Part shown: one piece after another, positions 2,933-19,100 of the stretch | How the letters are laid out: the number at the start of each line of letters is the position of its first letter | How positions within the stretch are numbered: position 1 is the stretch's first letter | Source of the DNA: a virus | IMG/VR virus record: IMGVR_UViG_3300021057_000015 | Length of the DNA: 48,795 bases | Reading direction: 5' to 3' (one strand) | Translations under genes and position numbers: made by a program | Notes under the pieces: model-generated | Seen by the model: the letters and a program-made list of their open reading frames with translations, nothing else | Database searches by the model: none | What the model was told of the DNA's origin: nothing

Positions 2933-3559
2933 ATGTTTCCATTCTCTGTAGCCGAAAAGTTCATTCAGCAAAACCCCGTGGCGGCTTTTGTCTCGGCTGT
3001 GGTTTCGCTTTGTGCTGCCGGTGCCCTGGCCCTTCAAGGGGTCGTCTTCTTCTCGGATACTGCGATCGGCATGTTGCTTTCAGCGGTCGCGCTCTACGTA
3101 GGTACCTTTACCGCCTTTTTGGGATTGCTCTTTAATCTGGTTACCGCCCCTTTGGGGGGCATCGTCGAACCCTCCTCCTACCAGAACCGGATAGAGTGCA
3201 TTCAGCAAACCATTCGGTGCACCGCGCTTAGCGTGGTGTTCACGCTTCTGGCTGTTCCGTGCGTTATTATGGCCCAGGAGAATGCGGTTGTTCCGCTGAA
3301 AGGGGTTTGGCAGGACGCCCTGTTCTTGCCCTATAACCAGTTTGTTCAGCCGTGGTTCTTTTCGATAGCTGTGTTCTTGCTCGCCTATGCTTTTTGCCTG
3401 ACCATCGTCATCTGCAAGCAGATGCATTCGCTGGCTATGATGGCTGTAGACGACAAGCAGGATGAGATCCACAAATACAAATCCACTATCATGCCGACAG
3501 GCGCCCAATCTTCCCAGTCTGCCCCACCTCCCGCAGCAACCACAAAGACTCAGCCTTAA
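2933..3559 (+). CDS. Integral membrane protein (208 aa, about four TM helices, polar C-tail), second gene of the AT-rich cassette
   Basis: AGGAGG RBS 7 nt upstream. Four hydrophobic segments of about 20-25 aa. It lies 41 nt after the previous gene and shares its composition. Confidence 0.7.
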   Translation: MFPFSVAEKFIQQNPVAAFVSAVVSLCAAGALALQGVVFFSDTAIGMLLSAVALYVGTFTAFLGLLFNLVTAPLGGIVEPSSYQNRIECIQQTIRCTALSVVFTLLAVPCVIMAQENAVVPLKGVWQDALFLPYNQFVQPWFFSIAVFLLAYAFCLTIVICKQMHSLAMMAVDDKQDEIHKYKSTIMPTGAQSSQSAPPPAATTKTQP

Positions 3560-3573
3560 ACAGCCAGAACCAC

Positions 3574-3616
3574 AAGCCCCGATGGCCAGAAAAGACCATC
3601 GGGGCTTGTTCTTTGG
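3574..3616. terminator. Bidirectional rho-independent terminator (12-bp stem AAGCCCCGATGG/CCATCGGGGCTT, then TTCTTTGG) between convergent genes
   Basis: Perfect inverted repeat with T-rich flanks on both strands. It sits between the 3' ends of 2933-3559 (+) and 3627-4460 (-). Confidence 0.55.
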
Positions 3617-3626
3617 ATCAGATGGC

Positions 3627-4460
3627 TCAAACCGGCGGTTTTTCGAGCACGGCCAGATGATCGCCGTTGAGATGCTTGTACATCAGGCCTTCGAGCCGGG
3701 TGTTGCGCAGCAGATTGTTGAGTACATCTGCGACACTCTTGCCGCCGAGGATCGCCAGCGGCGCCATGGATTCCGCCATCCGTTCCGCCAGGGCCTTGTC
3801 GCCGAAGGCCTGCAGCGCGGCGATGAAGTCGGGGTTGATCGCCTCGGCCTTTTTGACCACGGCCTCGACTTCGGACTGGAGCGAGAGCAGGCGCTGCTCG
3901 AGCCGCTGCCTGGAGGCATCGATCTCGACCTGATTGCTGGCGCGCAGGCGGGCGAGCTCGGCGTCGTGGACGCCGGAGATCTTGTTCTGCATCTCGAGCT
4001 TGGCCACCAGCCGGGCCTCTTCGAGCGCGATTTCCGACTGGGCCTTGCCGAGCTTGACCTCGAGCTCCTTGCCGATTTCCTGCAACTGCAGCTCCAGCTC
4101 CTGCTGGCGCGTGACCGAGCGCGTGGCCGAGATCCGGCGGTTGATGTCCTCCTGCTGCTGGACGAAATCGAGCCGGCGCCGCTCGGTGGTCAATTGCAGC
4201 GTCTGTTCGACCACGCTCCGCTGGGCCTTGACGAGCATCTTCTCGACTTCCTCGTCGACGAGTTCCACTCTCAGCACTTCCACGTCATATACCCGCATGC
4301 CGTTTTCGGGAAACGTGCGGCCGCGGCGTTCGCCCTCGGCATGCAGCCCGAGAATCGTGTTGCGCAGAATGTCGATTGAGTTGGAATAGAAGGCTTCCAC
4401 GCCCAGCTGTTTGACGGCGTTGCGCACCAGCGAGCGCATATGCTCGGTCAAAAACTTCAC
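3627..4460 (-). CDS. SPFH/band-7 (flotillin-like) protein, C-terminal portion only; probably 5'-truncated by the adjacent IS element
   Basis: Heptad-rich coiled coil (EA/Q repeats) followed by a C-terminal AVVKKAEAINPDFIAALQAFGDKALAERMA...LAILGG segment typical of flotillin/band-7 tails. The N-terminal membrane/SPFH core is absent. The ORF begins with GTG at the IS boundary and stays open into the IS. Confidence 0.6.
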   Translation of the reverse strand: MKFLTEHMRSLVRNAVKQLGVEAFYSNSIDILRNTILGLHAEGERRGRTFPENGMRVYDVEVLRVELVDEEVEKMLVKAQRSVVEQTLQLTTERRRLDFVQQQEDINRRISATRSVTRQQELELQLQEIGKELEVKLGKAQSEIALEEARLVAKLEMQNKISGVHDAELARLRASNQVEIDASRQRLEQRLLSLQSEVEAVVKKAEAINPDFIAALQAFGDKALAERMAESMAPLAILGGKSVADVLNNLLRNTRLEGLMYKHLNGDHLAVLEKPPV

Positions 4461-4533
4461 ATAGTTGCTGTATTTGCGGCTTCTGCAATAATTATCACAT
4501 TCCCGCCCGATCCCCCCGGTCTATCCTGGCAGC

Positions 4534-5733
4534 ATGAAAGCCTACATCGGAATCGACGTCGCCAAGCGTCACCACTATGCCTGGATCCTCGGGGCCGTGG
4601 CCCCGCACAAAAACCCCTTCGTCTTCAGCCACAGCGAGCAGGGCTTCACCCGGCTGGCGGAATGGATCGGGAGCGCCGCCCCCGGCCAAGAGCTGATCTT
4701 CGGTGTTGAGCCGACCGAGCCGTTTTCGGGAGCCCTGTCGGCCTGGCTGCGCCAGCGCGGCTGGACCTGCCACCTGATCCCTGGCGTCTACTGCCGGCGT
4801 GGGAAATACTTCTACACCAATTCCGGCCTCAAGAACGATACCATTGATGCCCAGGTGCTGGCGATGCTGCTGCGCGATGGCCAGTTCAAGACCCATGTGC
4901 CCCAGGCCGAGGCCTTCGGCGAGCTGCGCGAGCTGAGCAATCAGTATCTTCGGCTGGCCAGCATGCGCCGGGCCTCCCTTCAGCGGATCCACAGCCTGGT
5001 CGATCACATCTGGCCTGAGTTCAGCTTGCACATCAAGCTGAGAACAAAGACGGCCCTGGCGCTGCTGCGCCGGTTTTCGCGGCCGTCAGAGGTCGCGGCC
5101 CTGGGCCAAGCCGGTTTCGAGAAATTCGTCTGGGAAGTATCCGCCGGCAAGCTGAAGCAGGAAACGGCCGTCGCGCTCTACGAATCGGCGATCGCGAGCA
5201 TCGGCCTGCCGCGCCAGAGCAATGCTGTCGAGATGCGAATCGAGCTCGAACTGCTCGACTACTTCGACGATTGCTATGCCGAAATGCAAGAGGCGATCAT
5301 TGGCTGGTGCCAGCACATCCCCTATGCGAAGAATCTCCGAACCATCCCTGGCTTCGGGCCGTTGCTGACAGGCCTGCTGCTCGGCCAGGCCGGTGATCTG
5401 AGAAATTATCCGACGCCGCGGCATCTCTACAAGGTCGCAGGCGTCAACCTCACCGAGCGCAGCAGCGGCCTCTACAAAAGCCCTGTCCGGATCTCGCGCT
5501 CTGGCAGTCCGGCCCTGCGCCGCTGCCTGTTCTCAGCAGCTGCCAGCCAGTGCGGCGGCAGCCGCGGCAAAGGAATATTTCGAGAATGGTACCTCGAGCG
5601 CAGAGAACGGAGTATTCCCCGATCCAAAACGGTGATTGCGGCAGCACGTAAGCTTCTGCGCGTCGCCCACGCCATCGCCCGGGATGGCGGCCATTTTCGA
5701 GATTGTCGTCTGCCGACGCCCGTTTGCACGTAG
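4534..5733 (+). CDS. IS110-family (DEDD-type) transposase
   Basis: The N-terminus MKAYIGIDVAKRHHYAWIL is the hallmark IS110 N-terminal domain. A C-terminal helix-rich domain follows. Length is 399 aa. Confidence 0.9.
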   Translation: MKAYIGIDVAKRHHYAWILGAVAPHKNPFVFSHSEQGFTRLAEWIGSAAPGQELIFGVEPTEPFSGALSAWLRQRGWTCHLIPGVYCRRGKYFYTNSGLKNDTIDAQVLAMLLRDGQFKTHVPQAEAFGELRELSNQYLRLASMRRASLQRIHSLVDHIWPEFSLHIKLRTKTALALLRRFSRPSEVAALGQAGFEKFVWEVSAGKLKQETAVALYESAIASIGLPRQSNAVEMRIELELLDYFDDCYAEMQEAIIGWCQHIPYAKNLRTIPGFGPLLTGLLLGQAGDLRNYPTPRHLYKVAGVNLTERSSGLYKSPVRISRSGSPALRRCLFSAAASQCGGSRGKGIFREWYLERRERSIPRSKTVIAAARKLLRVAHAIARDGGHFRDCRLPTPVCT

Positions 5734-5788
5734 TCGAGGCGTAGACCTCCGCGAGGAATTATCGGCGCGGTGGATGGCGGTAACAGAG

Positions 5789-5832
5789 GCCCCAGGTTGT
5801 GACCCCCTGGGGCTTTCTGTCTTTTCGCTGTT
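5789..5832 (+). terminator. Rho-independent terminator downstream of the transposase (stem GCCCCAGG/CCTGGGGC, then a T-rich tract)
   Basis: 8-bp GC stem followed by TTTCTGTCTTTTCGCTGTT. Confidence 0.5.
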
Positions 5833-5914
5833 GTAAGGCTTTTTGCAATGGTGTATAGGTTGAATATTGGAGGGGTCGGCCCCCAGCGCTCAAAATACCC
5901 TAAGGATAAAACCT

Positions 5915-6154
5915 ATGATCAAACTCGATCGCCGCCCCTTTTTCGATGGTCACCCGGTTCGCTTTGATGAGCAGCCGATGGAGATCATCCAGGTTCCACT
6001 CGAAGATATTCTGCCGCTGATTGAGGCGTTGGAGCTGGGTGAGAAGCTTCCTTGTTGGGAATCTGATGACAACCTGTTTTCTTCGTTCCAGAGCCAAGAA
6101 GGCGGATGGGTCAGTGTGACCTTGCCTAGGTGGATTGAGGCCACGAACGGCTAA
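5915..6154 (+). CDS. Hypothetical small protein (about 80 aa)
   Basis: ATG preceded by an AAGGA RBS. An alternative TTG start lies at 5867. Protein-like composition. Confidence 0.4.
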   Translation: MIKLDRRPFFDGHPVRFDEQPMEIIQVPLEDILPLIEALELGEKLPCWESDDNLFSSFQSQEGGWVSVTLPRWIEATNG

Positions 6155-6209
6155 GACGTTTGAACCTCACCCCTGCATACTGGATTCGCCGGAAAGTGTC
6201 ACCTGAGGC

Positions 6210-6452
6210 TCAAGGTGGATCCAGATGCTCGGGCTTGAGCTCGTCGATCAGAAATTGCTCGAGCGGGGCCAGCGCGTCGGAGAGCTCAAGCATCAGATCG
6301 TCATACTCACGGGTGAAGGTGCCGTCATTGATCTCAGGGATCGCGTCGAGCAAGAGTTTCACAGCCTCGGTCAACGCCCCCACAGCAGCCTCTTTGCTGG
6401 CGCTCAGGCTGCGGCGATTTCGGTGGGCTTGAAAGTCGATCGGATCACTCAT
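6210..6452 (-). CDS. Hypothetical small acidic protein (about 80 aa, MSDPIDFQ...)
   Basis: Internal Met of the longer ORF 6210-6557. The region upstream of Met36 is Arg-rich junk-like. Convergent with 5915-6154. Confidence 0.35.
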   Translation of the reverse strand: MSDPIDFQAHRNRRSLSASKEAAVGALTEAVKLLLDAIPEINDGTFTREYDDLMLELSDALAPLEQFLIDELKPEHLDPP

Positions 6453-6612
6453 GGCCCTAGCATACCGGCTTCGCCTCCAAGTGTCATATCGGCCAAGCCG
6501 GCTCGTGCATTGGCTAAGGGTCATGAAAAAACCGCGGTCCCAGCTTCCCTGGTGCACCGCAGCGGGCCAGAACGGAAGCCGAGGAGTTGATCCCCGGCCG
6601 GCCTACCTCACA

Positions 6613-6783
6613 TCAGAAATACCAGGCCTTATAGCCGTAATCCGATGCTTCCATGATCTTCCCGGTCCGGTAGTGCCGGTAGCGCGTCTTGAACGACTTC
6701 CGGTTTTTCCGAGAACCAGCGTTATTTCCGCCGTTGCTGCTGTTGCCAGGGGTTGGTTTCTGGCGGTTACTTGAGTTGCTCAT
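6613..6783 (-). CDS. Small, very basic Ser/Asn/Lys/Arg-rich protein (56 aa)
   Basis: Internal Met of the ORF 6613-6963. AT-rich promoter-like DNA lies upstream. Speculative. Confidence 0.3.
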   Translation of the reverse strand: MSNSSNRQKPTPGNSSNGGNNAGSRKNRKSFKTRYRHYRTGKIMEASDYGYKAWYF

Positions 6784-6963
6784 AACTTTTCTGTAAACCT
6801 TTAACAAATTTAATTTTACTTGCTTGGAATTACAGGAAAGTCTACAATGGTAGTGACTCGCTACTTTTGTAGCTTCCCTGCAACCACCTCCAAGCGGGGT
6901 GCGACACCGGGAATGCAGCCCCGGAGCGCCAACTTCGGGGTTGTCTGCTTTTTCAACAGGCAT

Positions 6964-7065
6964 TCATCGATATCTCCTTTTCCGTTTTCGTGACAGCGCC
7001 TTCACGTCGTGAAGCCATCTGCTATTGCCCTTTTCAGGACCCAAAAAATCACTTAGGCCAGCCAT
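6964..7065 (-). CDS. 33-aa basic peptide ORF (MAGLSDFLGPEKGNSRWLHDVKALSRKRKRRYR) whose start codon lies inside a 12-bp stem
   Basis: The minus strand carries tandem AGGAGA SD-like motifs 5 nt before the ATG. The start codon is part of the inverted repeat at 7055-7108. It is not in the ORF track because it is under 60 aa. Confidence 0.2.
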   Translation of the reverse strand: MAGLSDFLGPEKGNSRWLHDVKALSRKRKRRYR

Positions 7066-7108
7066 GGTCGTCTCCTAGTCTCCTAGAACAACTTCTCATG
7101 GCTGGCCT
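7055..7108. promoter_or_regulatory. Large stem-loop: perfect 12-bp inverted repeat AGGCCAGCCATG / CATGGCTGGCCT around a 30-nt loop that contains a tandem 8-bp repeat TCTCCTAG x2
   Basis: Read directly from the sequence. It lies in a roughly 300-nt ORF-poor structured segment (6960-7260) that also holds the 15-bp palindrome CTTCACGtCGTGAAG at 7000-7014. Confidence 0.4.
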
Positions 7109-7257
7109 GCATTCCAGTCAAGGATGCAGGCCAAGAACATGTCATCCACGTCCTATGCCAACGGATCCGAGACTGGCCTGGTTATCCAGTTCCTGAATCC
7201 AGGGCATGGATCCGCTTTAATTCGGCTCCTATAGTTTCACCCTGGACAGGCACTGAC

Positions 7258-7814: not shown

Positions 7815-7862
7815 CCAAAAACGACGAAAAAATCCCGGCCAGGGAAACAGCCCGGCCGGGCG
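7815..7862. terminator. Bidirectional rho-independent terminator (stem CCCGGCC/GGCCGGG); on the minus strand it is followed by ATTTTTTCGTCGTTTTT and ends the phage late operon
   Basis: Hairpin flanked by an A-tract on the plus strand and a T-tract on the minus strand, immediately downstream of the last late gene (7889-8074). Confidence 0.55.
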
Positions 7863-7888: not shown

Positions 7889-8074
7889 TTATTGGCTGGC
7901 AATCACCTCGGCTGCGATCTGCTCGGCCTGAGCGATCTGCTCGGGCGTGGCGTCCGGGTGCAAAACGATTTGCCGGCCCGCCAGGGTGCCGTCGGTGTCG
8001 CGCACAGTGACAATCGGCAGGCCTTCCGCCTCGATTTCAGTATGGATTTGACGAAAAATGGCATCAATATCCAT
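7889..8074 (-). CDS. Small phage protein (61 aa), last gene of the late operon
   Basis: GGGAGGA RBS. Its start overlaps the stop of the tail-fibre gene. Confidence 0.55.
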   Translation of the reverse strand: MDIDAIFRQIHTEIEAEGLPIVTVRDTDGTLAGRQIVLHPDATPEQIAQAEQIAAEVIASQ

Positions 8075-8076
8075 GT

Positions 8077-8997
8077 TTAGAAGTATCCTCCCACAATTAA
8101 ACCAGTTTGAACAGGATTAGCGCCATTATCACCGTATATCGTGGAGGTGCCCCCCGACGAATATTCGATTGCCGAAATGAACGAAAATCCAGGTTCCAAA
8201 AATCCAGACCAGCTGGCAGACAGCACTTCACCGGCATTGCCGCCTGTGGCGTAGGCCCCAAAACCTGACCTGGCCGTCGTGGAATTGACCCCAATATTGG
8301 CCGCTCCCGCGGTGGAAGCCGCCGTGCTGATGAATGCCTGGTAGGTGGCGGTCAGGGCTTCAAGTTTTCGACCGATCACCACATTCGCCCGGTAATTTGA
8401 GCTATTGTTGGCCGCCCGCCAGGCCCCGACATTGCCATAGGTCCACGAATTCGTTGTGTCGTGAATCATGGTCGGCACAAACACCCGGTTGCTCTCGTTC
8501 CATACAAACAGATTGGCCGCCGCCGCATCGCCGCCGAAGCTGAACTCACACTGCCCGGTGACGCCAGTCGTTCGAATCGTTCCCAGATAGCGCCTGGCGG
8601 GCGCGCCTGTTTTGCACCAGACGCCATCTTGCTGGGCCAGGGCTACTGCCCTGGTTGAATCGTTCGTCCACTCCACCGCCTCAAGTGTCAGTGTGCCGCC
8701 GCTGGAGTACCCGAAGATATCGAAGTTCTTGTTGGCCGCAAACCCGCTCAAGCCCAGGCTGGCCTCGCTAAAGCTGAGCAGCTCCCAGGCACCGCCAGAG
8801 AAGAGTGCGATCTGATTGCCCTCGTGCGGCGTGTAATAGAGGGTGGTTTTGGCCGTCTGGCTGGTGGTCATGACCGGTGTGCCGCTGACCAGGGTCAGCC
8901 GGCCATTGGCTGTGCCGACCGGGACAACCGCGGCGGCAGCCGCTGCGGAGGATCCGCCCGTGCCCCAGCCCTGGCCGGGGATGTAAACCGGGCTCAT
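8077..8997 (-). CDS. Tail fibre / receptor-binding protein (Gly/Ser/Thr/Ala-rich, 306 aa)
   Basis: Fibre-like low-complexity beta-rich composition with N-terminal GQGWGTGGSSAAAAAA. Position at the distal end of the tail module. Confidence 0.65.
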   Translation of the reverse strand: MSPVYIPGQGWGTGGSSAAAAAAVVPVGTANGRLTLVSGTPVMTTSQTAKTTLYYTPHEGNQIALFSGGAWELLSFSEASLGLSGFAANKNFDIFGYSSGGTLTLEAVEWTNDSTRAVALAQQDGVWCKTGAPARRYLGTIRTTGVTGQCEFSFGGDAAAANLFVWNESNRVFVPTMIHDTTNSWTYGNVGAWRAANNSSNYRANVVIGRKLEALTATYQAFISTAASTAGAANIGVNSTTARSGFGAYATGGNAGEVLSASWSGFLEPGFSFISAIEYSSGGTSTIYGDNGANPVQTGLIVGGYF

Positions 8998-9419
8998 ACC
9001 ACGGCCACCAAGGCGCGGGTTTCGATGTCCGCGATCTCATTGGCGTAGCCGTGGCCAGGCCGAAGCGTCACCGTGCCGGTAGCGGCCCCGCCATCAGCCT
9101 TGAACCGAATCGAATTGAATTCCTCGTGCTGGGCGATTGGGAAGCTGGCGCCAGCGGCCACCTCCTCAATCCGGCTGCTGGTATTGGCCGTGTGCAGATT
9201 GCCGGCCGGCGTGTCGGCACTGCCGTCGTACTTGGTCACGTAAAAATACAGCTTCCGGTCGGTGTCGTTGACCACGTTGCAGACCTTCACGTTCAGCGGC
9301 AGCCGAAACAGGGCCTCAGTGGTGCTCGAGAACGGACAGGTATAGCGGCGATGGGCCAGCGGGATGTCGCGCTCTTCGGCAGACCGCGTATCGTCCTGGG
9401 TGATGTTTGAATAGGGCAC
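8994..9419 (-). CDS. Phage tail-associated protein (141 aa)
   Basis: Overlaps its neighbours in the late operon. No recognisable motif. Confidence 0.5.
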   Translation of the reverse strand: MPYSNITQDDTRSAEERDIPLAHRRYTCPFSSTTEALFRLPLNVKVCNVVNDTDRKLYFYVTKYDGSADTPAGNLHTANTSSRIEEVAAGASFPIAQHEEFNSIRFKADGGAATGTVTLRPGHGYANEIADIETRALVAVV

Positions 9420-9434
9420 AGGGATAGGTCCTTT

Positions 9435-9602
9435 CTACGGTCGAATCAGGGATAAGCCGGTGATGACAGCACCGCTGAGCAGAATCAGCGCTGCCAGGAA
9501 ATACAGGGCATTCCGCCACTTGTGCTCAGCGGGCCGGAGTTTCAGGATCACGAGCGTCAGCAGCGCTGCCAGGATTTTGAGAGTGACTATCACGGGTGTC
9601 AT
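9435..9602 (-). CDS. Small 2-TM membrane protein (55 aa; class II holin-like or antiholin-like)
   Basis: Not in the ORF track. ATG preceded by AAAAGGAGG. It translates to MTPVIVTLKILAALLTLVILKLRPAEHKWRNALYFLAALILLSGAVITGLSLIRP. It overlaps the 3' end of 9526-9900 out of frame. Confidence 0.4.
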   Translation of the reverse strand: MTPVIVTLKILAALLTLVILKLRPAEHKWRNALYFLAALILLSGAVITGLSLIRP

Positions 9603-9900
9603 CGAATCCAAACCTCCTTTTCATCTCCTTTTCACAATAGGCAAGGAAGCCCAGGCCCATGTAGCCGGCCATTCCCGCCAGAAAGATTTTGTAGTACATC
9701 CCGTCGAGGTGAAGCATCTGGGCCAGCGGGATCGCCATCAGGGCACAGAAGCCCGAGATGCAGGCATTGGCAGCCAGCAGCCAGATGAAGCGCCAGCCGC
9801 GGGCCCCGGTGTCGCGGTTATCGGCCACGGTGCGCGCGATGGAGCCGTAGAGCGCCACCACGGCGCAGGCGATGAGGTCGATCAGCTCTTGCTCGGTCAT
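9526..9900 (-). CDS. Membrane protein with about three TM helices (124 aa), holin-like
   Basis: Hydrophobic segments AVVALYGSIA, FIWLLAANACISGFCALMAIPLA and IFLAGMAGYMGLGFLAY. Located immediately downstream of a putative cell-wall enzyme gene. Confidence 0.5.
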   Translation of the reverse strand: MTEQELIDLIACAVVALYGSIARTVADNRDTGARGWRFIWLLAANACISGFCALMAIPLAQMLHLDGMYYKIFLAGMAGYMGLGFLAYCEKEMKRRFGFDDTRDSHSQNPGSAADARDPETPAR

Positions 9901-10388
9901 GGCCGGGCCGGGATCTTCAGGTCAGGGGGAACCTTGACGTAGCCCAGACCGTAATCGACATAGCATTTGGTGAAGGGCCCGTAGCCGATTTGCCAGCTCA
10001 CAAAGCGCTTGAGATCGTCCAGCGTGCGAAACACCAGGCAGCCGGCCGAGCCGGGCGCGGTGGCGCGGTTGCCGTCTGCGTGGAATCCGATGGCCCGGCT
10101 GCGCATGATCACCTGCCAGATCGGGCTCTTGATCTCGCGAAAAAGCCGTGTGTAATCGCCCTTTTGCCCGGCCCATTCCAGCGGCCCGAGATCAAATTCC
10201 CCTTCCGGGCAGGGCTCGAGCTGGCCGACGTGCTGGGTCGGGACCGTGCTCAGCCGCTGATGGCCCGGAGCGCCGGAATTGACGATCATGAAGCCGAGAT
10301 AATTCTTGCCCTGGAATGCATGCAGCTCGAGATCGAGCAGGCCGTTGGGGGCCATCCGGCCTTTCTTGACGACAAAGCTATTAACCAT
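9897..10388 (-). CDS. L,D-transpeptidase (YkuD)-like fold protein, candidate peptidoglycan-active lysis enzyme
   Basis: The motif HADGNRATAPGSAGCLVF has the spacing of the YkuD catalytic His...Ser-x-Gly-Cys signature. Length 163 aa. Gene order is enzyme then membrane proteins. Confidence 0.45.
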   Translation of the reverse strand: MVNSFVVKKGRMAPNGLLDLELHAFQGKNYLGFMIVNSGAPGHQRLSTVPTQHVGQLEPCPEGEFDLGPLEWAGQKGDYTRLFREIKSPIWQVIMRSRAIGFHADGNRATAPGSAGCLVFRTLDDLKRFVSWQIGYGPFTKCYVDYGLGYVKVPPDLKIPARP

Positions 10389-10725
10389 GGGGTGCCTCTT
10401 TCGTAGGGGGTTTGGGTTTGCCCTGGAACAGGCCCAGGGTGTTGAAGTGGTCTACCGCCCAGCGAATCGCCGCGGGCGCGAAGGGGATCACCAGGCCATA
10501 GGCCAGCAGATCGACCCAGGGCGGCTGATCGCCAAAGACGGTTTCGAGCTGGACATACAGCTGATTGAGGGCCCGCTGAAGCTTGGCCTCGGCAATCTGC
10601 TGCTTCTTGGGGCCCGGCGCACTCGGGTTTTCGAGCTCGGTCTTCAAGGCCGCAGCCAGGGCCAGGGTCTGCAGGGCGGACGCAGTCGGCGCATGCAGGG
10701 CTTTCAGGCCGGTCAGTTCGTCCAT
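10381..10725 (-). CDS. Hypothetical protein (about 115 aa)
   Basis: Internal Met (MDELTGLK...) of ORF 10381-10980. The upstream part of that ORF is Pro/Arg/Cys-rich off-frame junk. Its start immediately follows the stop of the metzincin gene. Confidence 0.45.
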   Translation of the reverse strand: MDELTGLKALHAPTASALQTLALAAALKTELENPSAPGPKKQQIAEAKLQRALNQLYVQLETVFGDQPPWVDLLAYGLVIPFAPAAIRWAVDHFNTLGLFQGKPKPPTKEAPHG

Positions 10726-10729
10726 GGGG

Positions 10730-11602
10730 CTACCTCTTGAGAAACGGATTGGTTGCCAGGCGGTCTTTTTCGTAAGGCACCAGCACGGCCAGCGGCGGCA
10801 TGCCGCGCTGCATGATCGCGTTCTGAATCCCGCTGGCATTGCCCATGGAGGCATCGGTGTGCTGCAGGCCCAGGCAGTGCCCGAGCTCGTGGCCAATGGC
10901 ATAGGCCACGGTCTGGGCGCGCGGGGTCGGAGCGGCCGGATCGTAGAGATTGGCCGGCAGGGTGGCAAAGCTGCTGACAAAGGTCAGCCAGCCGCCGCCG
11001 GCCGCGTCATAGTCCCAATCGGCCGTTGCGCCGCAATACTGGGTGCAGACATAGATCAGGTTGCTGTTGATGCGATTGCCGTAGAATCGCAGCAGATCGG
11101 CCTGGCAGACCTTCCAACTGTCGTACCGATCGGCTTGGTCCATATAAAGCTGCTGCCACTCGACGGCGGTTTTGTCGCTGCCAAAGAGCGTCGGGCGCAT
11201 CACGGTCAGCCGGCCGACGCCCTGGCCTTCGTACCAGTCGGCTACGCGCAGGCAGTTCTGATGGAAGGTTTCGGCCGCGCCGTTGAGCTCGGCGATCGGC
11301 CGGCTGAGGGTGTCCTTGGCGAACAGGATCACGGGCACCACCTGCCAGTCCTGGCGGTAGGGGTGGAAAAACTGCCAGCCCCATTCGTCGAAGCCGGTTT
11401 GCACCACTTGCCAGTCCGCGCCGTACTTCGCCCGGCACCAGCCTTTGAGATCCACCGGATAGCGCCGGGTGTCGCCGGGCTTTTTGGCGGCCCAGCCGTA
11501 GGCGTGGTGGGTGTCGTTGGGCCAGAGCTCGGTGGTCGGGCCATAGGCCCAGCGTGCGGCCTCGAGAATTACGGAATAGCCTATCTGAATGTAGGGTGAC
11601 AT
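10730..11602 (-). CDS. Matrixin-like zinc metalloprotease (metzincin, M10-type) within the tail module
   Basis: The motif HELGHCLGLQH is an exact match to the HExxHxxGxxH signature, and it is followed by NAIMQRG, which is Met-turn-like. 290 aa. Confidence 0.7.
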   Translation of the reverse strand: MSPYIQIGYSVILEAARWAYGPTTELWPNDTHHAYGWAAKKPGDTRRYPVDLKGWCRAKYGADWQVVQTGFDEWGWQFFHPYRQDWQVVPVILFAKDTLSRPIAELNGAAETFHQNCLRVADWYEGQGVGRLTVMRPTLFGSDKTAVEWQQLYMDQADRYDSWKVCQADLLRFYGNRINSNLIYVCTQYCGATADWDYDAAGGGWLTFVSSFATLPANLYDPAAPTPRAQTVAYAIGHELGHCLGLQHTDASMGNASGIQNAIMQRGMPPLAVLVPYEKDRLATNPFLKR

Positions 11603-11613
11603 GGGGCCTCCTT

Positions 11614-12720
11614 TTAGCCTTCAATCCAGGTCAGGCGGGCGTATCCATCGGTGCCGTTGGCGCCGTTGTTGGTGCCGCCTGCGCTGGCGCCGCCGCCGCC
11701 AGCGCCATAGCCCGTGCCGTTCGAACCGTTGGAATTTCCGGTATTGGTGCCGCTGGCGCCGCCGCCGCCGTGGTAGCCGCCCCCGCCGGGTCCTACCCCA
11801 CCGCCACCCGGCCATAGGCCATCCCCGCCGTTTTCGGTCGGGCCTGTGGCATCCGATGCGCCGCCGGCCCCGCCGTGCACGCCGGCATCCACCAGCTGGG
11901 CTGGGTCGGAAAAAATATCCCAGTCAGTCATGAACTGCCGGCCGATGTAGGTGCTCGTGGCTTGCCCGCCAGGGCTCGTGCCAACCTTGTCGCCGCCCTT
12001 GCCACCGGTCCCACCTGCAGCAGACAGCAGCGTTCCGTTGGTGCCGTCTGCGATCGTCGTGTTGCCCCCGTTGCTGGCGTTGCTGGGATTGGTACTCGCT
12101 GCCGTTCCGTTGCTTTTGGCGCCGATGGTGATGGTCAGGTTGCCCGTGATCAGCGAAACATCCAGCTCTTTGACCTGGGTGGCGCCGCCACCTCCGCCAC
12201 CCCCGCCCTGGTTGGTGCCGTTGTCGTTGCCGCCGCCACCGGCGCCGGCACCCTTGGCGCGGCCCCAGCACTTGTGCAGGGTGGCCGGCTTGGTCCAGGT
12301 ATTGGCGCCGGGGGTGGTCCAGGCCTGCGCTTTATACTTGCTCCCGGCCGCATTGATTTGGGCTTTCAGCCGCGCATAGTTTAGATCGCTGTTTCGCCAG
12401 TAGCCGTAATAGGGCTGGGTCATGACGTCTTTGAGGTTGGCGCCGATTTTGCACAGCTCCGCCGTGGCAAAGGTGCTGCCGGCAATCACGGTCAGCGCCA
12501 CCGAGCTGTTTTTGGTCTCGGTCCAGCCCAGGGCCGACCCATAGATCGCATCCAGGCTGGAGCTGTTGGAAAACAGGGCCTGGCAGGAACCAAAATCGGC
12601 CATCAGCTCGCGGAACAGTGCTCGGTTACCGATGGTGCCGAGGTAGGTTTGTAGGGTGGTGGAGGTATAGCCCCCGGCCAGCAGAGAAGCTTTCAGGCTA
12701 TTGGCGGAAGATGATGGCAT
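11614..12720 (-). CDS. Gly-rich tail fibre-like protein (about 368 aa from MPSSSANSLK)
   Basis: The C-terminal half consists of GGxGG/NGT collagen-like low-complexity repeats. The N-terminal 41 residues of the tracked ORF are judged off-frame leader and not part of the protein. Confidence 0.6.
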   Translation of the reverse strand: MPSSSANSLKASLLAGGYTSTTLQTYLGTIGNRALFRELMADFGSCQALFSNSSSLDAIYGSALGWTETKNSSVALTVIAGSTFATAELCKIGANLKDVMTQPYYGYWRNSDLNYARLKAQINAAGSKYKAQAWTTPGANTWTKPATLHKCWGRAKGAGAGGGGNDNGTNQGGGGGGGGATQVKELDVSLITGNLTITIGAKSNGTAASTNPSNASNGGNTTIADGTNGTLLSAAGGTGGKGGDKVGTSPGGQATSTYIGRQFMTDWDIFSDPAQLVDAGVHGGAGGASDATGPTENGGDGLWPGGGGVGPGGGGYHGGGGASGTNTGNSNGSNGTGYGAGGGGASAGGTNNGANGTDGYARLTWIEG

Positions 12721-12722
12721 GG

Positions 12723-13544
12723 TTAAAGACCTCTTAGGAAAGCGAGTCGAAGATGGGCCGTAAACGGCCGGGACGCCGTTGCATCCGTGTTGTACAGGCG
12801 CAGGTAGAGATAGCCGGATGGCATGTCCGCGCACCAGCCGCACAGAACCAGTTTCTGATTCAGGATCGGCAGCGACGTCAGCACGACCCCATAGGCCGAC
12901 TCCATATACGGAAGCGGCACTTTCAGAGTCGTGGCCGTGGTCGCGGCAATGATGCCAATGGTGGCTGGGATGGTTAGGTGGATTGGTTGCTTATCTTGAA
13001 GCTTTTTGATCTGATCCCGCAGCTCCAGCACCTGCAGCGCCAGCCAGGTCGTCAAGCCCTCATCACCGGCTCCGCCGGACGTCTCCTGCTTGACCCACTG
13101 CCCGGTATAGTTGCTGTTGACGATGTCCTCGCCGCCAGCGGTCAGGCTGCTGCCAGACTGCCAGCGGTAGGGGCCCACGTCCTTGACGTGGTATTTCAGG
13201 CCTTCTGGCGCGTAGGTCGTATCGATGGTGGGCAGATCGGCCACGGAATCGGCGTTGAACAGGCCCATCCCGTTAAAGAGGCGATTCGACAGCAGCACGC
13301 GCACATTCCGCACCTCGCCGGGAACGGCCGGTGCACCGCTGAGCGGTGCCGCCAGCGTGACCTGGTTGCCGCTGAGGCTGGCAATCTTACCTTCCTCGAA
13401 ATTGCTGCCGACCTTGACCAGGATCCACAGGCCCTCGGCCAGATTCGTCGCGCTCGAGACAGTGAAGATCTGATTGGTCGGCGCCGGTGATGCTGCGACC
13501 GTCAGAATCTCTGGGGCCTTGCCGAAAAAGTCTGTATAGCCCAT
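12723..13544 (-). CDS. Tail protein (273 aa)
   Basis: Contiguous with the fibre genes. Composition is beta-rich. Confidence 0.55.
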   Translation of the reverse strand: MGYTDFFGKAPEILTVAASPAPTNQIFTVSSATNLAEGLWILVKVGSNFEEGKIASLSGNQVTLAAPLSGAPAVPGEVRNVRVLLSNRLFNGMGLFNADSVADLPTIDTTYAPEGLKYHVKDVGPYRWQSGSSLTAGGEDIVNSNYTGQWVKQETSGGAGDEGLTTWLALQVLELRDQIKKLQDKQPIHLTIPATIGIIAATTATTLKVPLPYMESAYGVVLTSLPILNQKLVLCGWCADMPSGYLYLRLYNTDATASRPFTAHLRLAFLRGL

Positions 13545-16156: not shown

Positions 16157-19100
16157 TTAGTTCAGGCTGCCCATAAAGGTGCCGTTGACCTTGGCCAGAT
16201 TGGGATCGATGCCGGCCTGGCGCAGGGTCTCGAGCACCATGCGCCGGACCTGCTCCGGGTTTTTGGCGTCGTAAATCGGAATGTTGATCTCGTAGGCCCG
16301 CTGCTGGTTGTAGACGCTGCTGGTGCCGCCGTGGTTCATGCGCCAGGCGCCTTCGATCAGCTCGGCGAACCACTTCGGAAAGACGGGCTCACCGCTGTTG
16401 AGCAGGGCCGGGAAGCGATCCCCGTCGAAGCCGGCCGGCACCACGCCGCCGCCAGCCATGCGCGGCAGGCCGGTGCTGCCCAGCATCTTCGAAACCATAT
16501 TCTGAGCGTAGGCTTCTGCCTGCGCCACGTTCAGCGATTTGCCTTCTACGCCGAGGGTATAGGCCAGATTTCCTGTGGTCTTGACGCCCAGCGCCGCAGC
16601 TTCCTTGAGCTGATGGACCAGCCCGCGGTACCAGCTGGTGATATCGGCCAGGGGCCGCTTGATCCCGTTGCGCAGCTCAGTGACCGCAACTTTCCACGGG
16701 TTATGGGCCTCAGTCAGGGCCTTGACGGACTTGTCGATTTCCTTCAGATCGCGGTCGCGCTCCTCGGTCAGCCTGGCCAGGTCGGACCGGTAGGCCTCCA
16801 GGTTCTGCTGGACCTTGGCCGCTTTCTTGTCGTTGGCGGCGATCTGGGTCTCGATATACGCCACTTCCTTCTCAGTGGCGTCTCGCATAGCTTCCAGATG
16901 CGCTTCTTTGAAGCTGGTGTAAGCCTGCGCCTGCATCTGCTGCAGCTCCAGATAGGCCCGGCTGCCTTCCTCGGCGGTCTTGAGCTGCTCGGCGGCAAAC
17001 CGGCCCTCGATCGCCGCGATCCGCTTCATCTCGTCCAGGAAAAGGGCTTTGTTCTTGGCGGGATCAGTGGAGTCAAACTGTTCGAGGTTGAATTTGTTCT
17101 CGGCTGAGAGCTTGAGCAGCGCCGCCCGCTCTTTCATGGCCTCGATGTGGGACTGGCCGGAGTAGGTTTCGGTCAGGACGCCGTCTGGATTGTGAATCGC
17201 CTTGAGGCCGGCGCGCAACTCCGCGTCGAAGTCGACGCCCGCGACGGCTTTGGCGTAGAGGCCTTGGTCTTCGCGCTCGAATTTCGCCTCATCCTGGGCC
17301 AGTAGTTCACGCTTGAGATCGATCTGTTTGCGCAGGCGCTCGTTCTGGGCTTCAATCTTGGCCAGCAGGCGCTCATGCAGGGCAATTTGCCTGTTGGTGT
17401 GCGCGGAATCCTCCTCAAACATCTCCTGCTGCGCCTCGGCCATCGCTTCGGCACGCTGCCGCAACAGGTTCTCGGCATCCTGCAGGTTCTTGTTGAGTTG
17501 CTGCTTGGCAGTGTCACTGGCCTTGTCGACCGCTGCCTGAATCTGCCGGTGAAACTCCGGCCAGAGCTTGGCCAGCCGCCTCTGAAATTCGGCTTGGACG
17601 TCTTCCGGCGGCTGCAGCCAGTTGATGTGCCGGCCGTGAAACTCCTCTTCGATTTCGGTCTGGATGTCCCGAACGGCCTCGGCATACTGATCGCCGACCT
17701 CGGCGAAGTCCACGTTCGAGGGATCCAGACCCAACCGGGCCAGAAAGTCCTTTTTCAGGGCGTCGCGCTTGGCCGGCTCGTCATAGTTCCGCTTCTGATA
17801 GGCCAGCCGGTTCTGGATTTTATCAAGCTCCCGCTGGGCCCGCTCCTGCGGGTCCGTTCCCAGCGCACCGAAGATGCCCGGCAGGATTTCGACAAAGGCC
17901 TTCTGTGCTGCCTTGATATCGTCCGACATCTGGCCCGTGTGCTGATTGACCGTGCGCGCAAGCTCGGCAAAGTCGTTTTTGACCTTGGCCTGCTTCTCAA
18001 GGGGAATGCCGTCGAGATTCAGCGTCAGGCCGTTTGGTCCCCAGGTGACGCCCTGCCGGCCAAGATTACGGTTGAAGTCGTAAATGGCGTCTGTGATATC
18101 CTTTTCGGCCCCCTTGATGGCCCGATCCACCTCAAGCTGATAGGTGGACTTGCCGTTCGCCTTCGCAGCGCGGATCTGGCGATCGAGATCATCGAGCTCC
18201 GCCGCGTCTGCGATGGCCTTGGCGCGCTCAGCTTCTTCGCGGGTTTCGCGGATCAGGCGCTGGGTGGTGGTAATCATGCCGATCACGGTGCTGAAGACGT
18301 TCAGGAAGCCCTGGATGGCCCCACCAATAAAGTCACCGCTCAGGATCCGGCCGATGGCGCCGAACGCGCCTCCCGCCACACTGACCAGATTGTGGAAGGA
18401 CTCGGCGGCATCGCGGTCGAATTCGGCGATGGCGTCGCCGATCATGCGGAAAACGCCTACGCCGGCATCTGCCACCTGGGCCAGGTTCTCCTTCGAGAAC
18501 ATGTCTTTCAGGATGTCAGAGGGCTTGACCTCAGCATAATCCTGGCTTGCTTTCTTGCTGCTGCCGCCCTTGCTTGGCTTGCCAATGGCAGCGGCGTCCG
18601 GCCGGCGATCCATGAACAGCAGTGCGAGGGGATCCGCAGCATTGGAAACGCTTTTGTCGCCGGCCTTGCCCTCAAGGATGTCCCGGGTGCGGATATACTC
18701 CTGCATGCCCTTAGTCAGCTTGCCCAACTGGCGATCCGTCAGGCCGTACTTTTTGCCCAGCTCCTCAACACTGGCCGCTCCGCCATTTACCTGGATGATG
18801 AAATCCCTCATGGCGTCGCCGTTGGCCAGTAAGCCATCGATGAAGGCCCGGCCTTTGTCGTTGGCTTCATCTAAATTAGCCAGGTACTGATCGGAGTCTT
18901 TTCCGGCCAGCGCAACCGCCTCCATGCTCAAATGGTCGGACGCAACGCTTTGGTTGCCCCACTGCGTGGGCTTGGAGCCGTAGAGTCGCTCGTACTGGAA
19001 GACAAGCCTCCGCTGGCTTCCCTCGATGTCCTTGAGCCCTTTTTCCATTTCCGCAAGCTGCTGGGCCTGCTCGGCCGACATGTCTTTGCTCATGGAACGC

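Follow-up and report, generated by a model that had tools for sequence, protein, structure and literature searches.

The window analysed here, a 48,795-nucleotide stretch of virus DNA (IMG/VR record IMGVR_UViG_3300021057_000015), comes from an uncultured phage whose host lineage is probably cyanobacterial, and a DNA search of positions 8000-13000 against phage records returned zero matches. The features named in an earlier note on this DNA were found where it had placed them, on the minus strand. A Gly-rich tail-fibre/adhesin protein (11614..12843; Pfam Gly_rich_2, E 2.7e-10; PHROG 863 'tail fiber assembly', E 1e-25), the true start of which is probably internal, near 12720, is the upstream neighbour of a 290-aa ORF with an HExxH zinc motif and a Met-turn (10730..11602), referred to below as the metzincin, and the same gene order is repeated in two related loci (L027 and L028). 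There follow a 114-aa ORF (10381..10725), a gene for a 163-aa YkuD-fold protein that is the predicted endolysin (9897..10388), a gene for a predicted 124-aa LydA-type holin (9526..9900) and a gene for a 55-aa two-TM protein, the putative holin partner (9435..9602). Because the 114-aa ORF intervenes, the YkuD gene does not lie immediately downstream of the metzincin as had been described. A 141-aa protein matching no Pfam or PHROG family (8994..9419) travels with the downstream gene for a 306-aa tail-spike-like protein (8077..8997; the 'distal fibre' of the earlier note), and homologues of the former lie 5' of a spike-like gene in L012-L014 and L027, with homologues of the latter present in L013 and L014. 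A tblastn search aligned 84% of the 306-aa protein, at 32% identity, with the C-terminal half of gp18 of Pseudanabaena phage Pam5, which carries the annotation 'tail spike protein'. The late operon is closed, 3' of a 61-aa ORF at 7889-8074, by an intrinsic-terminator-like hairpin on the same strand (7834..7860; 10 pairs, 9 of them G-C, then a T-run), and no comparable site was seen between the fibre genes and this hairpin.

The zinc site of the 290-aa protein had been called matrixin/metzincin, of which the metzincin part is borne out. HELGHCLGLQH occupies residues 238-248 and is followed by NAIMQRG, containing Met264; among 71 aligned relatives H238, E239, H242 and H248 were invariant and G245 and M264 at least 90% conserved, and the full extended motif HExxHxxGxxH/D was present in 108 of the 154 proteins retrieved. 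The ORF has the fold of a metzincin catalytic domain. Protease homology, the absence of which the earlier note had named as grounds for abandoning its reading, was found in a profile match to AMUC_1438, the best match in the PDB (E 8.9e-8), which is limited to 36 residues but spans HExxH to the Met-turn, M264 aligning with the Met-turn region of AMUC_1438. These data support the identification of a genuine metzincin-fold protease with predicted activity. The matrixin part did not hold. Matrixins carry a Ser after the third zinc His and a pro-peptide with the PRCGxPD cysteine switch; here the sequence reads HTD, with no Ser after the third His and no PRCG, and no matrixin profile (MEROPS M10A, Pfam PF00413) matched over the catalytic domain. 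Against Reprolysin-type Pfam the protein scored 17.7 bits, below the cutoff of 27; Reprolysin_5 was matched at E < 1e-3 by 42 of the 71 family members (best 1e-11), and the L009 homologue exceeded the cutoffs for both Reprolysin_4 and Reprolysin_3. Residues ~8-85 form a tandem repeat with a unit of ~38 aa and residues ~85-290 the catalytic domain. The signal-peptide check proposed earlier was negative for the metzincin, in which no tail-attachment domain was recognisable, and no metzincin-fibre fusion was present among its relatives.

Both by profile and by fold the phage metzincin resembles OgpA (AMUC_1119) and AMUC_1438, metzincin-type O-glycopeptidases of Akkermansia muciniphila, with which it shares fold beyond the generic metzincin core at a sequence identity of 16-20%, the likeness being judged on overall fold. 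These enzymes and the present family alike give only short PF12044/Reprolysin-type Pfam matches around the motif, and AMUC_1438 and bacterial members of the family both bear carbohydrate-binding modules. Unlike OgpA and AMUC_1438, the phage protein has a different N-terminal module, the tandem repeat, and lacks a signal peptide, and its substrate would be bacterial whereas theirs is mucin. The order HExxHxxGxxH then Met-turn is shared with adamalysins/reprolysins (MEROPS M12B; Reprolysin_2 to Reprolysin_5; e.g. ADAM17 and atrolysin C), from which the phage metzincin differs in having Thr instead of Asp after the third His and no disintegrin or pro-domain architecture. Action as a peptidoglycan peptidase was considered and is unlikely, as all strong structural neighbours are protein or glycoprotein endopeptidases; the closest relatives of solved structure are O-glycoprotein-cleaving enzymes. 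In bacterial relatives signal peptides occur together with CBM6, CBM35, lectin or fn3 modules, suggesting that the family acts extracellularly on glycan-bearing material, and the whole architecture of repeats plus catalytic domain is common to secreted bacterial enzymes. One distant homologue (~22% identity) lies beside a secreted trypsin-like protease, apart from tail and lysis genes. Among 50,697 phage records tblastn detected no metzincin homologue, PHROGs held no family for it, and a BFVD fold search gave weak matches to eukaryotic-virus MMPs alone (TM <=0.41). Scans of metagenomes and of IMG/VR for loci of this type yielded one locus each, and in a scan of genome contigs the generic HExGH pattern saturated the output, leaving only the marginal loci L019-L022.

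The YkuD-like H...SxGC motif reported for the ORF at 9897-10388 is present, as FHADGNRATAPGSAGC, and is conserved. Across 27 relatives H103, S114, G116 and C117 were invariant, and the protein has the YkuD beta-sandwich fold and the H-x(13-17)-[ST]-x-G-C motif, with S114-A-G-C117; the His before Gly-Cys in the usual [ST]HGC motif is replaced by Ala, the window motif reading SAGC-L-V-F. Its score against Pfam PF03734 was 14.1 bits, below the threshold of 23.4, and 21 of the 27 relatives were likewise sub-threshold (best E 1.4e-4); judged by sequence, these proteins are a divergent YkuD subfamily. No signal peptide was found. Both L,D-carboxypeptidases and L,D-endopeptidases are known among YkuD enzymes, and the top structural matches of the window protein are hydrolytic L,D-carboxypeptidases; given the sub-threshold Pfam score and the Ala in the [ST]HGC motif, we infer hydrolysis from these structural neighbours only. 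Csd6 of H. pylori, Pgp2 of C. jejuni, DpaA and the T6SS effector Tlde1 share the His...Cys catalytic pair and are YkuD members that hydrolyse and do not form cross-links; the Pfam Tlde1_dom profile was also matched by three of the 27 relatives. Identity to this group is 12-15%, and the window protein differs from its members in being a single 163-aa domain without NTF2-like or other accessory domains and in being phage-encoded and holin-coupled.

Homology to the window YkuD protein was also found in the C-terminal ~150 aa of endolysins of cyanophage S-2L (S2L_53) and Nodularia phages (e.g. vB_NpeS-2AV2 gp071), at 30-34% identity and a profile E of ~1e-29, H...[ST]AGC being conserved both in these and in the L017 homologue. 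The S-2L and Nodularia proteins bear the annotation lysozyme or endolysin, the gene in S-2L lying 3' of tail-fibre genes, and have two domains, the N-terminal one being GH24 Phage_lysozyme, whereas the window protein consists of the YkuD-like domain alone. In L017 the domain is joined to an M23 domain in a 1275-aa protein. Stand-alone YkuD-type versions adjoin small membrane-protein ORFs in siphovirus-like and myovirus-like loci. A 307-320-aa PG_binding_1 protein in the lysin position of L001, L003, L006 and L027, with an IH...SAGC motif, gave an hhalign probability of 2.6% against YkuD and no PDB match. Among lysin domain classes YkuD is accepted but uncommon, accounting for 10 of the thousands of PhaLP entries, and no biochemistry on YkuD-fold lysins was found in the literature.

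The YkuD gene joins the next gene through an ATGA overlap, and the earlier expectation of a holin-like membrane gene after the enzyme was supported. The 124-aa product matched Pfam PF16083 (Phage_holin_3_3; E 1e-5) at 26.0 bits, 2.4 short of the cutoff of 28.4, and PHROG 6384, 785 and 6854, all 'holin' (best 4.5e-8). Kyte-Doolittle hydropathy showed strong hydrophobic segments at residues 7-25 and 39-57, and the third of the TM segments attributed to this protein is only a weaker, Gly-rich stretch at ~69-88. The sub-threshold profile match, multi-TM topology, charged C-terminal tail and following accessory gene recall the LydA-type holins of phage P1 (PF16083, holin superfamily III), although the partner, unlike that of P1, is a small two-TM protein encoded partly within the holin 3' end. 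The small ORF (9435-9611) is preceded by AAAAGGAGG. Its two TM segments (KD peaks 2.48 and 2.40) and RBS are as previously reported, the start being revised to what is most likely ATG 9602, 10 nt after GGAGG, giving a 55-aa protein whose ORF overlaps the holin 3' end by 77 nt in another frame. This protein is predicted to be an antiholin or second holin component. A homologue occurs in L003-L005 (E 3e-6), where the overlap is 95 nt, and small two-TM ORFs of analogous kind extend over the holin end in L006/L018, L009, L023, L026 and L027, all loci in which holin homologues lie 3' of the metzincin.

The 114-aa ORF has an AAGAGG RBS and runs 8 nt into the start of the YkuD gene. Homologues lie directly 5' of a YkuD-type lysin in L012-L015 and L010/L011, and also within the L001 lysis cassette, and no Pfam or PHROG match was obtained. 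A role as a membrane protein or spanin was considered on account of one moderate hydrophobic stretch (KD ~1.6) but rejected, as charged residues occur there in the L001 and L013 homologues, and the protein is probably soluble.

A predicted peptidoglycan-directed enzyme is encoded beside a holin-like gene, an arrangement repeated in relatives, and a Pfam scan of the 58 other window ORFs detected no lysozyme or amidase, in agreement with the earlier statement that a canonical endolysin is not seen elsewhere in the late region. The sole wall-hydrolase match was Peptidase_M23 inside the tape-measure protein, and a PHROG 'endolysin' match, phrog_6700, considered as a separate lysin, proved to be this same M23 domain. 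The window contained no recognisable spanin-like gene. Since the only other wall hydrolase is the tape-measure M23 domain, the region reads as a lysis cassette set among fibre and spike genes, as the earlier note had proposed, with the Gly_rich_2 fibre upstream and the Pam5-spike-like protein downstream; that this position is unusual is not supported, as at least eight related loci have the same layout. The lysis unit would comprise 9435-10725. Having no signal peptide, the 163-aa YkuD-fold enzyme would build up in the cytoplasm until the inner membrane is breached by the LydA-type holin, which the overlapping 55-aa protein would regulate or assist. Peptidoglycan stem peptides would then be attacked by the enzyme at the L-centre of the diamino acid through L,D-carboxy/endopeptidase chemistry, Cys117 serving as nucleophile and His103 as base, so that cross-links are cut; the conserved 114-aa protein would be an accessory.

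Most YkuD enzymes are transpeptidases, and the window protein could instead be a non-lytic wall-binding or remodelling module of this kind, or could detach outer-membrane proteins from peptidoglycan in the manner of DpaA, lysis then depending on an unrecognised enzyme or the tape-measure M23 domain. Its score below the Pfam threshold would fit such a role, as would the pairing of the domain with a lysozyme in S-2L and Nodularia phages, which implies that it need not suffice alone. We nevertheless regard a non-lytic function as improbable: this is the only wall-directed enzyme adjoining the holin, to which it is translationally coupled, its best structural matches are hydrolytic, the catalytic His and Cys are invariant even in fused lysins, and stand-alone versions recur beside small membrane-protein ORFs in loci of both tail types.

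Two mosaic exchanges separate the metzincin from these lysis genes. The sequences flanking an exchanged segment on either side are 94.5% identical between L009 and L008; in this segment the fibre body and metzincin of L009 correspond in L008 to another fibre and a beta-propeller protein, the genes from the holin onward being unchanged. Conversely, L001 and L006 keep their tail genes, metzincin and next ORF (72% identity) while their holin modules are unrelated. These exchanges indicate that the metzincin belongs with the fibre and not with the lysis genes, and by this comparative evidence it is evolutionarily part of the tail-fibre (host-range) cassette; lysis genes aside, it has fibre or spike genes on either side. 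With moderate confidence we therefore read the region as two adjacent units on one late transcript, a holin-dependent lysis cassette and a catalytically intact, fibre-linked metzincin. Folds, motif conservation, gene order, translational coupling and mosaic boundaries are the observed basis of this reading, from which the enzymatic activities, the substrates and the route of the metzincin to its substrate are inferred. Joint exchange with the fibre body, a position right after the fibre gene, which is the usual site of fibre assembly factors, and the match of the upstream protein to a PHROG named 'tail fiber assembly' would also suit a protease that matures or assembles the neighbouring fibre, for example by trimming a chaperone segment, and has no host target. 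This is very unlikely, as the fibres 5' of the metzincin differ from locus to locus (Gly_rich_2, 295-aa, 421-aa and 529-aa proteins), L008 has a beta-propeller protein and no protease in the metzincin slot, and the close structural relatives and CBM-bearing, signal-peptide bacterial homologues imply extracellular substrates.

Fibre linkage of the metzincin is compatible with a virion-borne surface protease, but the metzincin also abuts lysis genes in at least eight loci, with which a role at exit is equally compatible. The metzincin would then be a soluble late enzyme, released with the lysin through the holin lesion, that either weakens the outer envelope (S-layer or outer-membrane-tethering proteins) in place of a spanin or keeps progeny from being trapped by destroying the fibre's receptor on debris and neighbouring cells. 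Like the lysin it is without a signal peptide, its gene directly precedes holin/lysis genes in the window, L003-L005, L006/L018, L009, L023, L026 and L027, it lacks a virion-anchoring domain and has the architecture of free secreted bacterial enzymes, and no spanin was recognised in the window; the receptor-destroying version also accounts for its co-exchange with the fibre. A precedent is the phage-remnant metzincin Mtz of Listeria monocytogenes, encoded with a TIMP-like partner, Tim; when the metzincin is expressed, cells become more sensitive to phage lysins and more virions are released (PMC8235301). Mtz, likewise a metzincin of phage origin, is compared here on its described properties; unlike the window protein it has a signal peptide for secretion and a TIMP-like lipoprotein partner, and Mtz/Tim are under a CI/Cro switch on a Gram-positive chromosome. 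Action at exit appears somewhat doubtful in view of the signal peptide of Mtz, of the occurrence of the same lysin and holin types without a metzincin in L007, L008 and L010-L014, and of the independent swapping of the holin module.

The favoured reading is that the metzincin acts at adsorption, held at or near the fibre tip. As a protein of the OgpA/adamalysin structural type with an N-terminal tandem-repeat module, it would most likely target a host outer-surface protein or glycoprotein (S-layer, pilus or outer-membrane glycoprotein), the surface being that recognised by the fibre. We tentatively propose as a possibility that it is a protein or glycoprotein 'depolymerase' matched to the fibre receptor, either shaving glycosylated S-layer, pilin or outer-membrane protein from the fibre tip or released at lysis to destroy the receptor and free progeny.

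YkuD-fold lysins are a barely explored class, and a stand-alone protein of 163 aa would be about the smallest cysteine L,D-peptidase lysin, from a family hitherto hidden within cyanophage 'lysozyme' annotations. The phage enzymes known to open a way to the cell surface are mostly polysaccharide-cleaving. If the metzincin acts on the host surface, this repertoire would be extended to proteins, and the family would be the first phage host-surface protease family described with the O-glycopeptidase/adamalysin fold and a possible source of new glycoprotein-cleaving reagents, and would provide an experimental handle on phage entry and exit in S-layer-bearing hosts such as cyanobacteria.

Starting with the tape measure and ending at about 7.8 kb, the genes all lie tightly packed on the minus strand of the window. 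After the Gly-rich protein at 11614-12843, a fibre or adhesin (Pfam Gly_rich_2, PHROG 863), come a 290-aa HExxH protein, the metzincin (10730-11602), a 114-aa ORF overlooked by the earlier note (10381-10725), a 163-aa YkuD-fold protein with an H...SAGC motif (9897-10388), a 124-aa membrane protein, the predicted holin (9526-9900), and a small two-TM ORF (9435-9611, start most likely the ATG at 9602). Beyond these lie a 141-aa ORF (8994-9419), a 306-aa protein (8077-8997), a 61-aa ORF (7889-8074) and a strong terminator-like hairpin (7860-7834), all on the same strand. A distance of 4 nt separates the metzincin stop from the start of the next gene, the 114-aa ORF overlaps the YkuD gene by 8 nt (ATGGTTAA), the YkuD and holin genes overlap at ATGA, and the two-TM ORF starts in another frame 77 nt inside the holin 3' end, 10 nt after AAAAGGAGG; these spacings suggest translational coupling. 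The successive metzincin (11602), 114-aa (10725) and YkuD (10388) genes share the start context CCCCATG, a few bases 3' of a purine-rich ribosome-binding site.

The 163-aa protein has a YkuD fold. Its structure model is confident (pLDDT 91.5) and H103, S114, G116 and C117 are invariant in 27 homologues, confirming the YkuD-like motif reported earlier. The protein and its homologues each score below the Pfam cutoff, with 21 of the 27 matching YkuD and three matching Tlde1_dom. The YkuD family takes in L,D-carboxypeptidases and L,D-endopeptidases cutting the meso-DAP to D-Ala bond, and YkuD is listed in PhaLP as a rare lysin domain class (10 entries). When 50,697 phage records were searched with tblastn, this domain turned up in Cyanophage S-2L and in nine Nodularia phage records, where it makes up the C-terminal half of the protein annotated as lysozyme or endolysin. 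These proteins keep H...[ST]AGC and carry an N-terminal GH24 Phage_lysozyme domain. The 163-aa protein is the candidate lysin. In the related locus L017 a Peptidase_M23 domain (residues 647-741) and a YkuD-like domain (827-975, H...SAGC intact) stand together in one 1275-aa ORF (3424-7251), suggesting that a large tail-associated wall hydrolase employs the YkuD-like domain too. In a Pfam scan of 58 further window ORFs, 15 families reached E < 1e-4, of which the sole wall hydrolase was Peptidase_M23 (E 1.3e-28; about 19289-19951, minus strand), in agreement with the previous claim that no canonical endolysin is seen elsewhere in the late region. This domain occupies residues about 1010-1230 of the 2274-aa tape measure (16157-22981, minus strand) and is presumably a wall-piercing enzyme for entry, not lysis. 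A proteome-wide PHROG 'endolysin' match maps onto the same region and was ruled out as a separate lysin. In several metzincin-bearing relatives (L001 10310-11254, L006 4432-5376, L003 2603-3526, L027 7481-8443) the lysin position is filled by a 307-320-aa protein with a near-threshold PG_binding_1 match; its uncharacterised C-terminal domain keeps C208, H223, H264 and S276-A-G-C279 invariant. This protein gave no link to the YkuD-like family in hhalign (2.6%) and may be another, unclassified cysteine-peptidase lysin.

The 124-aa protein, described earlier as a holin-like three-TM protein, resembles LydA-type holins (Pfam PF16083, E 1e-5, 26.0 bits against a cutoff of 28.4) and PHROG holin families (E down to 4.5e-8), with two strong hydrophobic segments, a weaker third and a charged tail. 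The two-TM ORF encodes 55 aa with two very hydrophobic segments. A homologue (E 3e-6) overlaps the holin gene in the equivalent way in the Sericytochromatia-MAG loci L003-5 (95 nt; L003 2410-2504), and in L006/L018, L009, L023, L026 and L027 the holin stop lies within the reach of comparable small two-TM ORFs that overlap it; the 55-aa protein is thus a genuine, conserved partner of the holin. Dual coding in the holin 3' end (window 9526-9602, minus strand, 77 nt; L003-5, 95 nt) is conserved between these distant relatives, and in others the overlap is only 14-20 nt. The 114-aa ORF matched no database family. Its homologues lie directly upstream of YkuD-type lysins in L012-L015 and L010/L011, whose tail backgrounds are unrelated, and one lies inside the L001 lysis cassette; the protein may be a conserved lysis-cassette accessory. 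By eye, it shares a P-x-[WPY]-[VI]-D...[VI]-I-P stretch with 92-94-aa ORFs of L026 and L027.

The metzincin alone gave sub-threshold Pfam matches around the motif only (Reprolysin_5 17.7 bits, Peptidase_M10 16.0 bits). Close relatives are very rare, forming six clusters among 5.8 billion proteins, and a profile built from these clusters retrieved 190 cluster representatives at E < 1e-3, of which 107 scored E < 1e-10. Across 71 aligned members H238, E239, H242 and H248 are invariant, and G245 and the Met-turn M264 are conserved in at least 90%. The profile also matched AMUC_1438 (E 8.9e-8) over the HExxH-to-Met-turn stretch. AMUC_1438 and OgpA are metzincin-type O-glycopeptidases of Akkermansia muciniphila, poorly classified by existing families save for a short PF12044 match, and the window family is likewise caught by short matches only. 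The earlier assignment as a matrixin-like metzincin therefore stands for metzincin and is rejected for matrixin, as 42 of the 71 members match Reprolysin_5 and only three Peptidase_M10, the residue after the third zinc His is Thr, and no PRCG switch was found in the sequence. Residues about 8-85 form a tandem repeat of about 38 aa per unit (ID.xxAAxxQYGxxAxxxxxGxHxYDWKA; short form xxAAxxQYGxxAxxxxxGxHxYxW), obvious in distant members and common to phage and signal-peptide-bearing bacterial homologues, some of which have CBM6, CBM35, lectin or fn3 modules. The phage protein lacks a hydrophobic N-terminus. No Pfam family spans this repeat, which is undescribed; further examples are P0047, P0048, P0046 and P0057, and some bacterial members have Cys pairs. 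Several full-length members without HExxH (P0065, P0071, P0073, P0084, P0094), some with an N-terminal TM segment, look like catalytically dead, membrane-anchored derivatives. In L030/L031 (7001-8517), from a larger phage-like contig, a distant homologue (about 22% identity) precedes a Trypsin_2 serine protease whose N-terminus resembles a signal peptide; the pair is surrounded by genes for RNase T, RecJ and ribonucleotide reductase and lies outside the tail and lysis modules.

The position of the metzincin gene alone is ambiguous because the last fibre gene precedes it and the lysis genes follow it in the window, L001/L002, L006/L018, L003-5, L009, L023, L026 (31% identity) and L027/L028 (27% identity, once more immediately downstream of a Gly_rich_2 protein). 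Two mosaics resolve this ambiguity. In the first, L009 and L008 match at about 94.5% identity to either side of an exchanged segment, in which the fibre body and metzincin of L009 (4048-6175) are replaced in L008 by a different fibre and a 341-aa beta-propeller-like protein, with homology restarting at the holin. L001 and L006 share tail genes, metzincin, the next 157/159-aa ORF and the downstream lysin at about 72% identity, and have unrelated holin modules in the segment between that ORF and the lysin. The holin pair precedes the 159-aa-type ORF in L009, L023 and L027 and follows it in L006, indicating that lysis units move relative to neighbouring ORFs. The window's lysin type is not accompanied by a metzincin in L007, L008 and L010-L014. 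Together these comparisons argue that the metzincin belongs to the fibre module. In the window, as in L013/L014 and L027, spike-type genes lie downstream of the lysis genes, which are thus small mobile units within a fibre and spike module. In the myovirus-like L014 the metzincin's slot holds a 198-aa ORF (5060-5656) with no Pfam match, whose CDCDDFA...H pattern, seen by eye, recalls transglutaminase-like cysteine peptidases.

Isolate-phage relatives of the lysin domain and of the 306-aa spike-like protein are only cyanophages (S-2L, Nodularia phages, Pseudanabaena phage Pam5), and one metzincin relative lies next to a host IMPDH in a Sericytochromatia MAG; the host is likely cyanobacterial or a related diderm. 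The window also encodes a Rad52/Erf-type annealing protein, HTH regulators and, as one of the 58 further ORFs, an IS110-family transposase (DEDD_Tnp_IS110 2.2e-23, Transposase_20 7.8e-16), indicating an insertion sequence in a phage-like contig.

From family knowledge, the YkuD enzyme, without a signal, would accumulate in the cytoplasm until the holin and its two-TM partner permeabilise the membrane; it would then attack the L-centre carbonyl of the diamino acid to give a thio-acyl intermediate, whose hydrolysis would break cross-links. The metzincin would be a zinc endopeptidase against a host surface protein or glycoprotein matching the fibre specificity. The evidence above ties its gene to the fibre, the place of the protein itself being a separate matter, and it could act at adsorption or, released at lysis, as an exit or receptor-destroying enzyme; action at adsorption has a modest lead over this second version. 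The lysis cassette adds one more member to a rare but known kind. For the fibre-linked metzincin neither a PHROG family nor, by tblastn, a homologue among sequenced phages was found, and BFVD gave nothing convincing. With its predicted activity and location, this OgpA/adamalysin-like enzyme would be a variation on the general theme of phage enzymes directed against the host surface.
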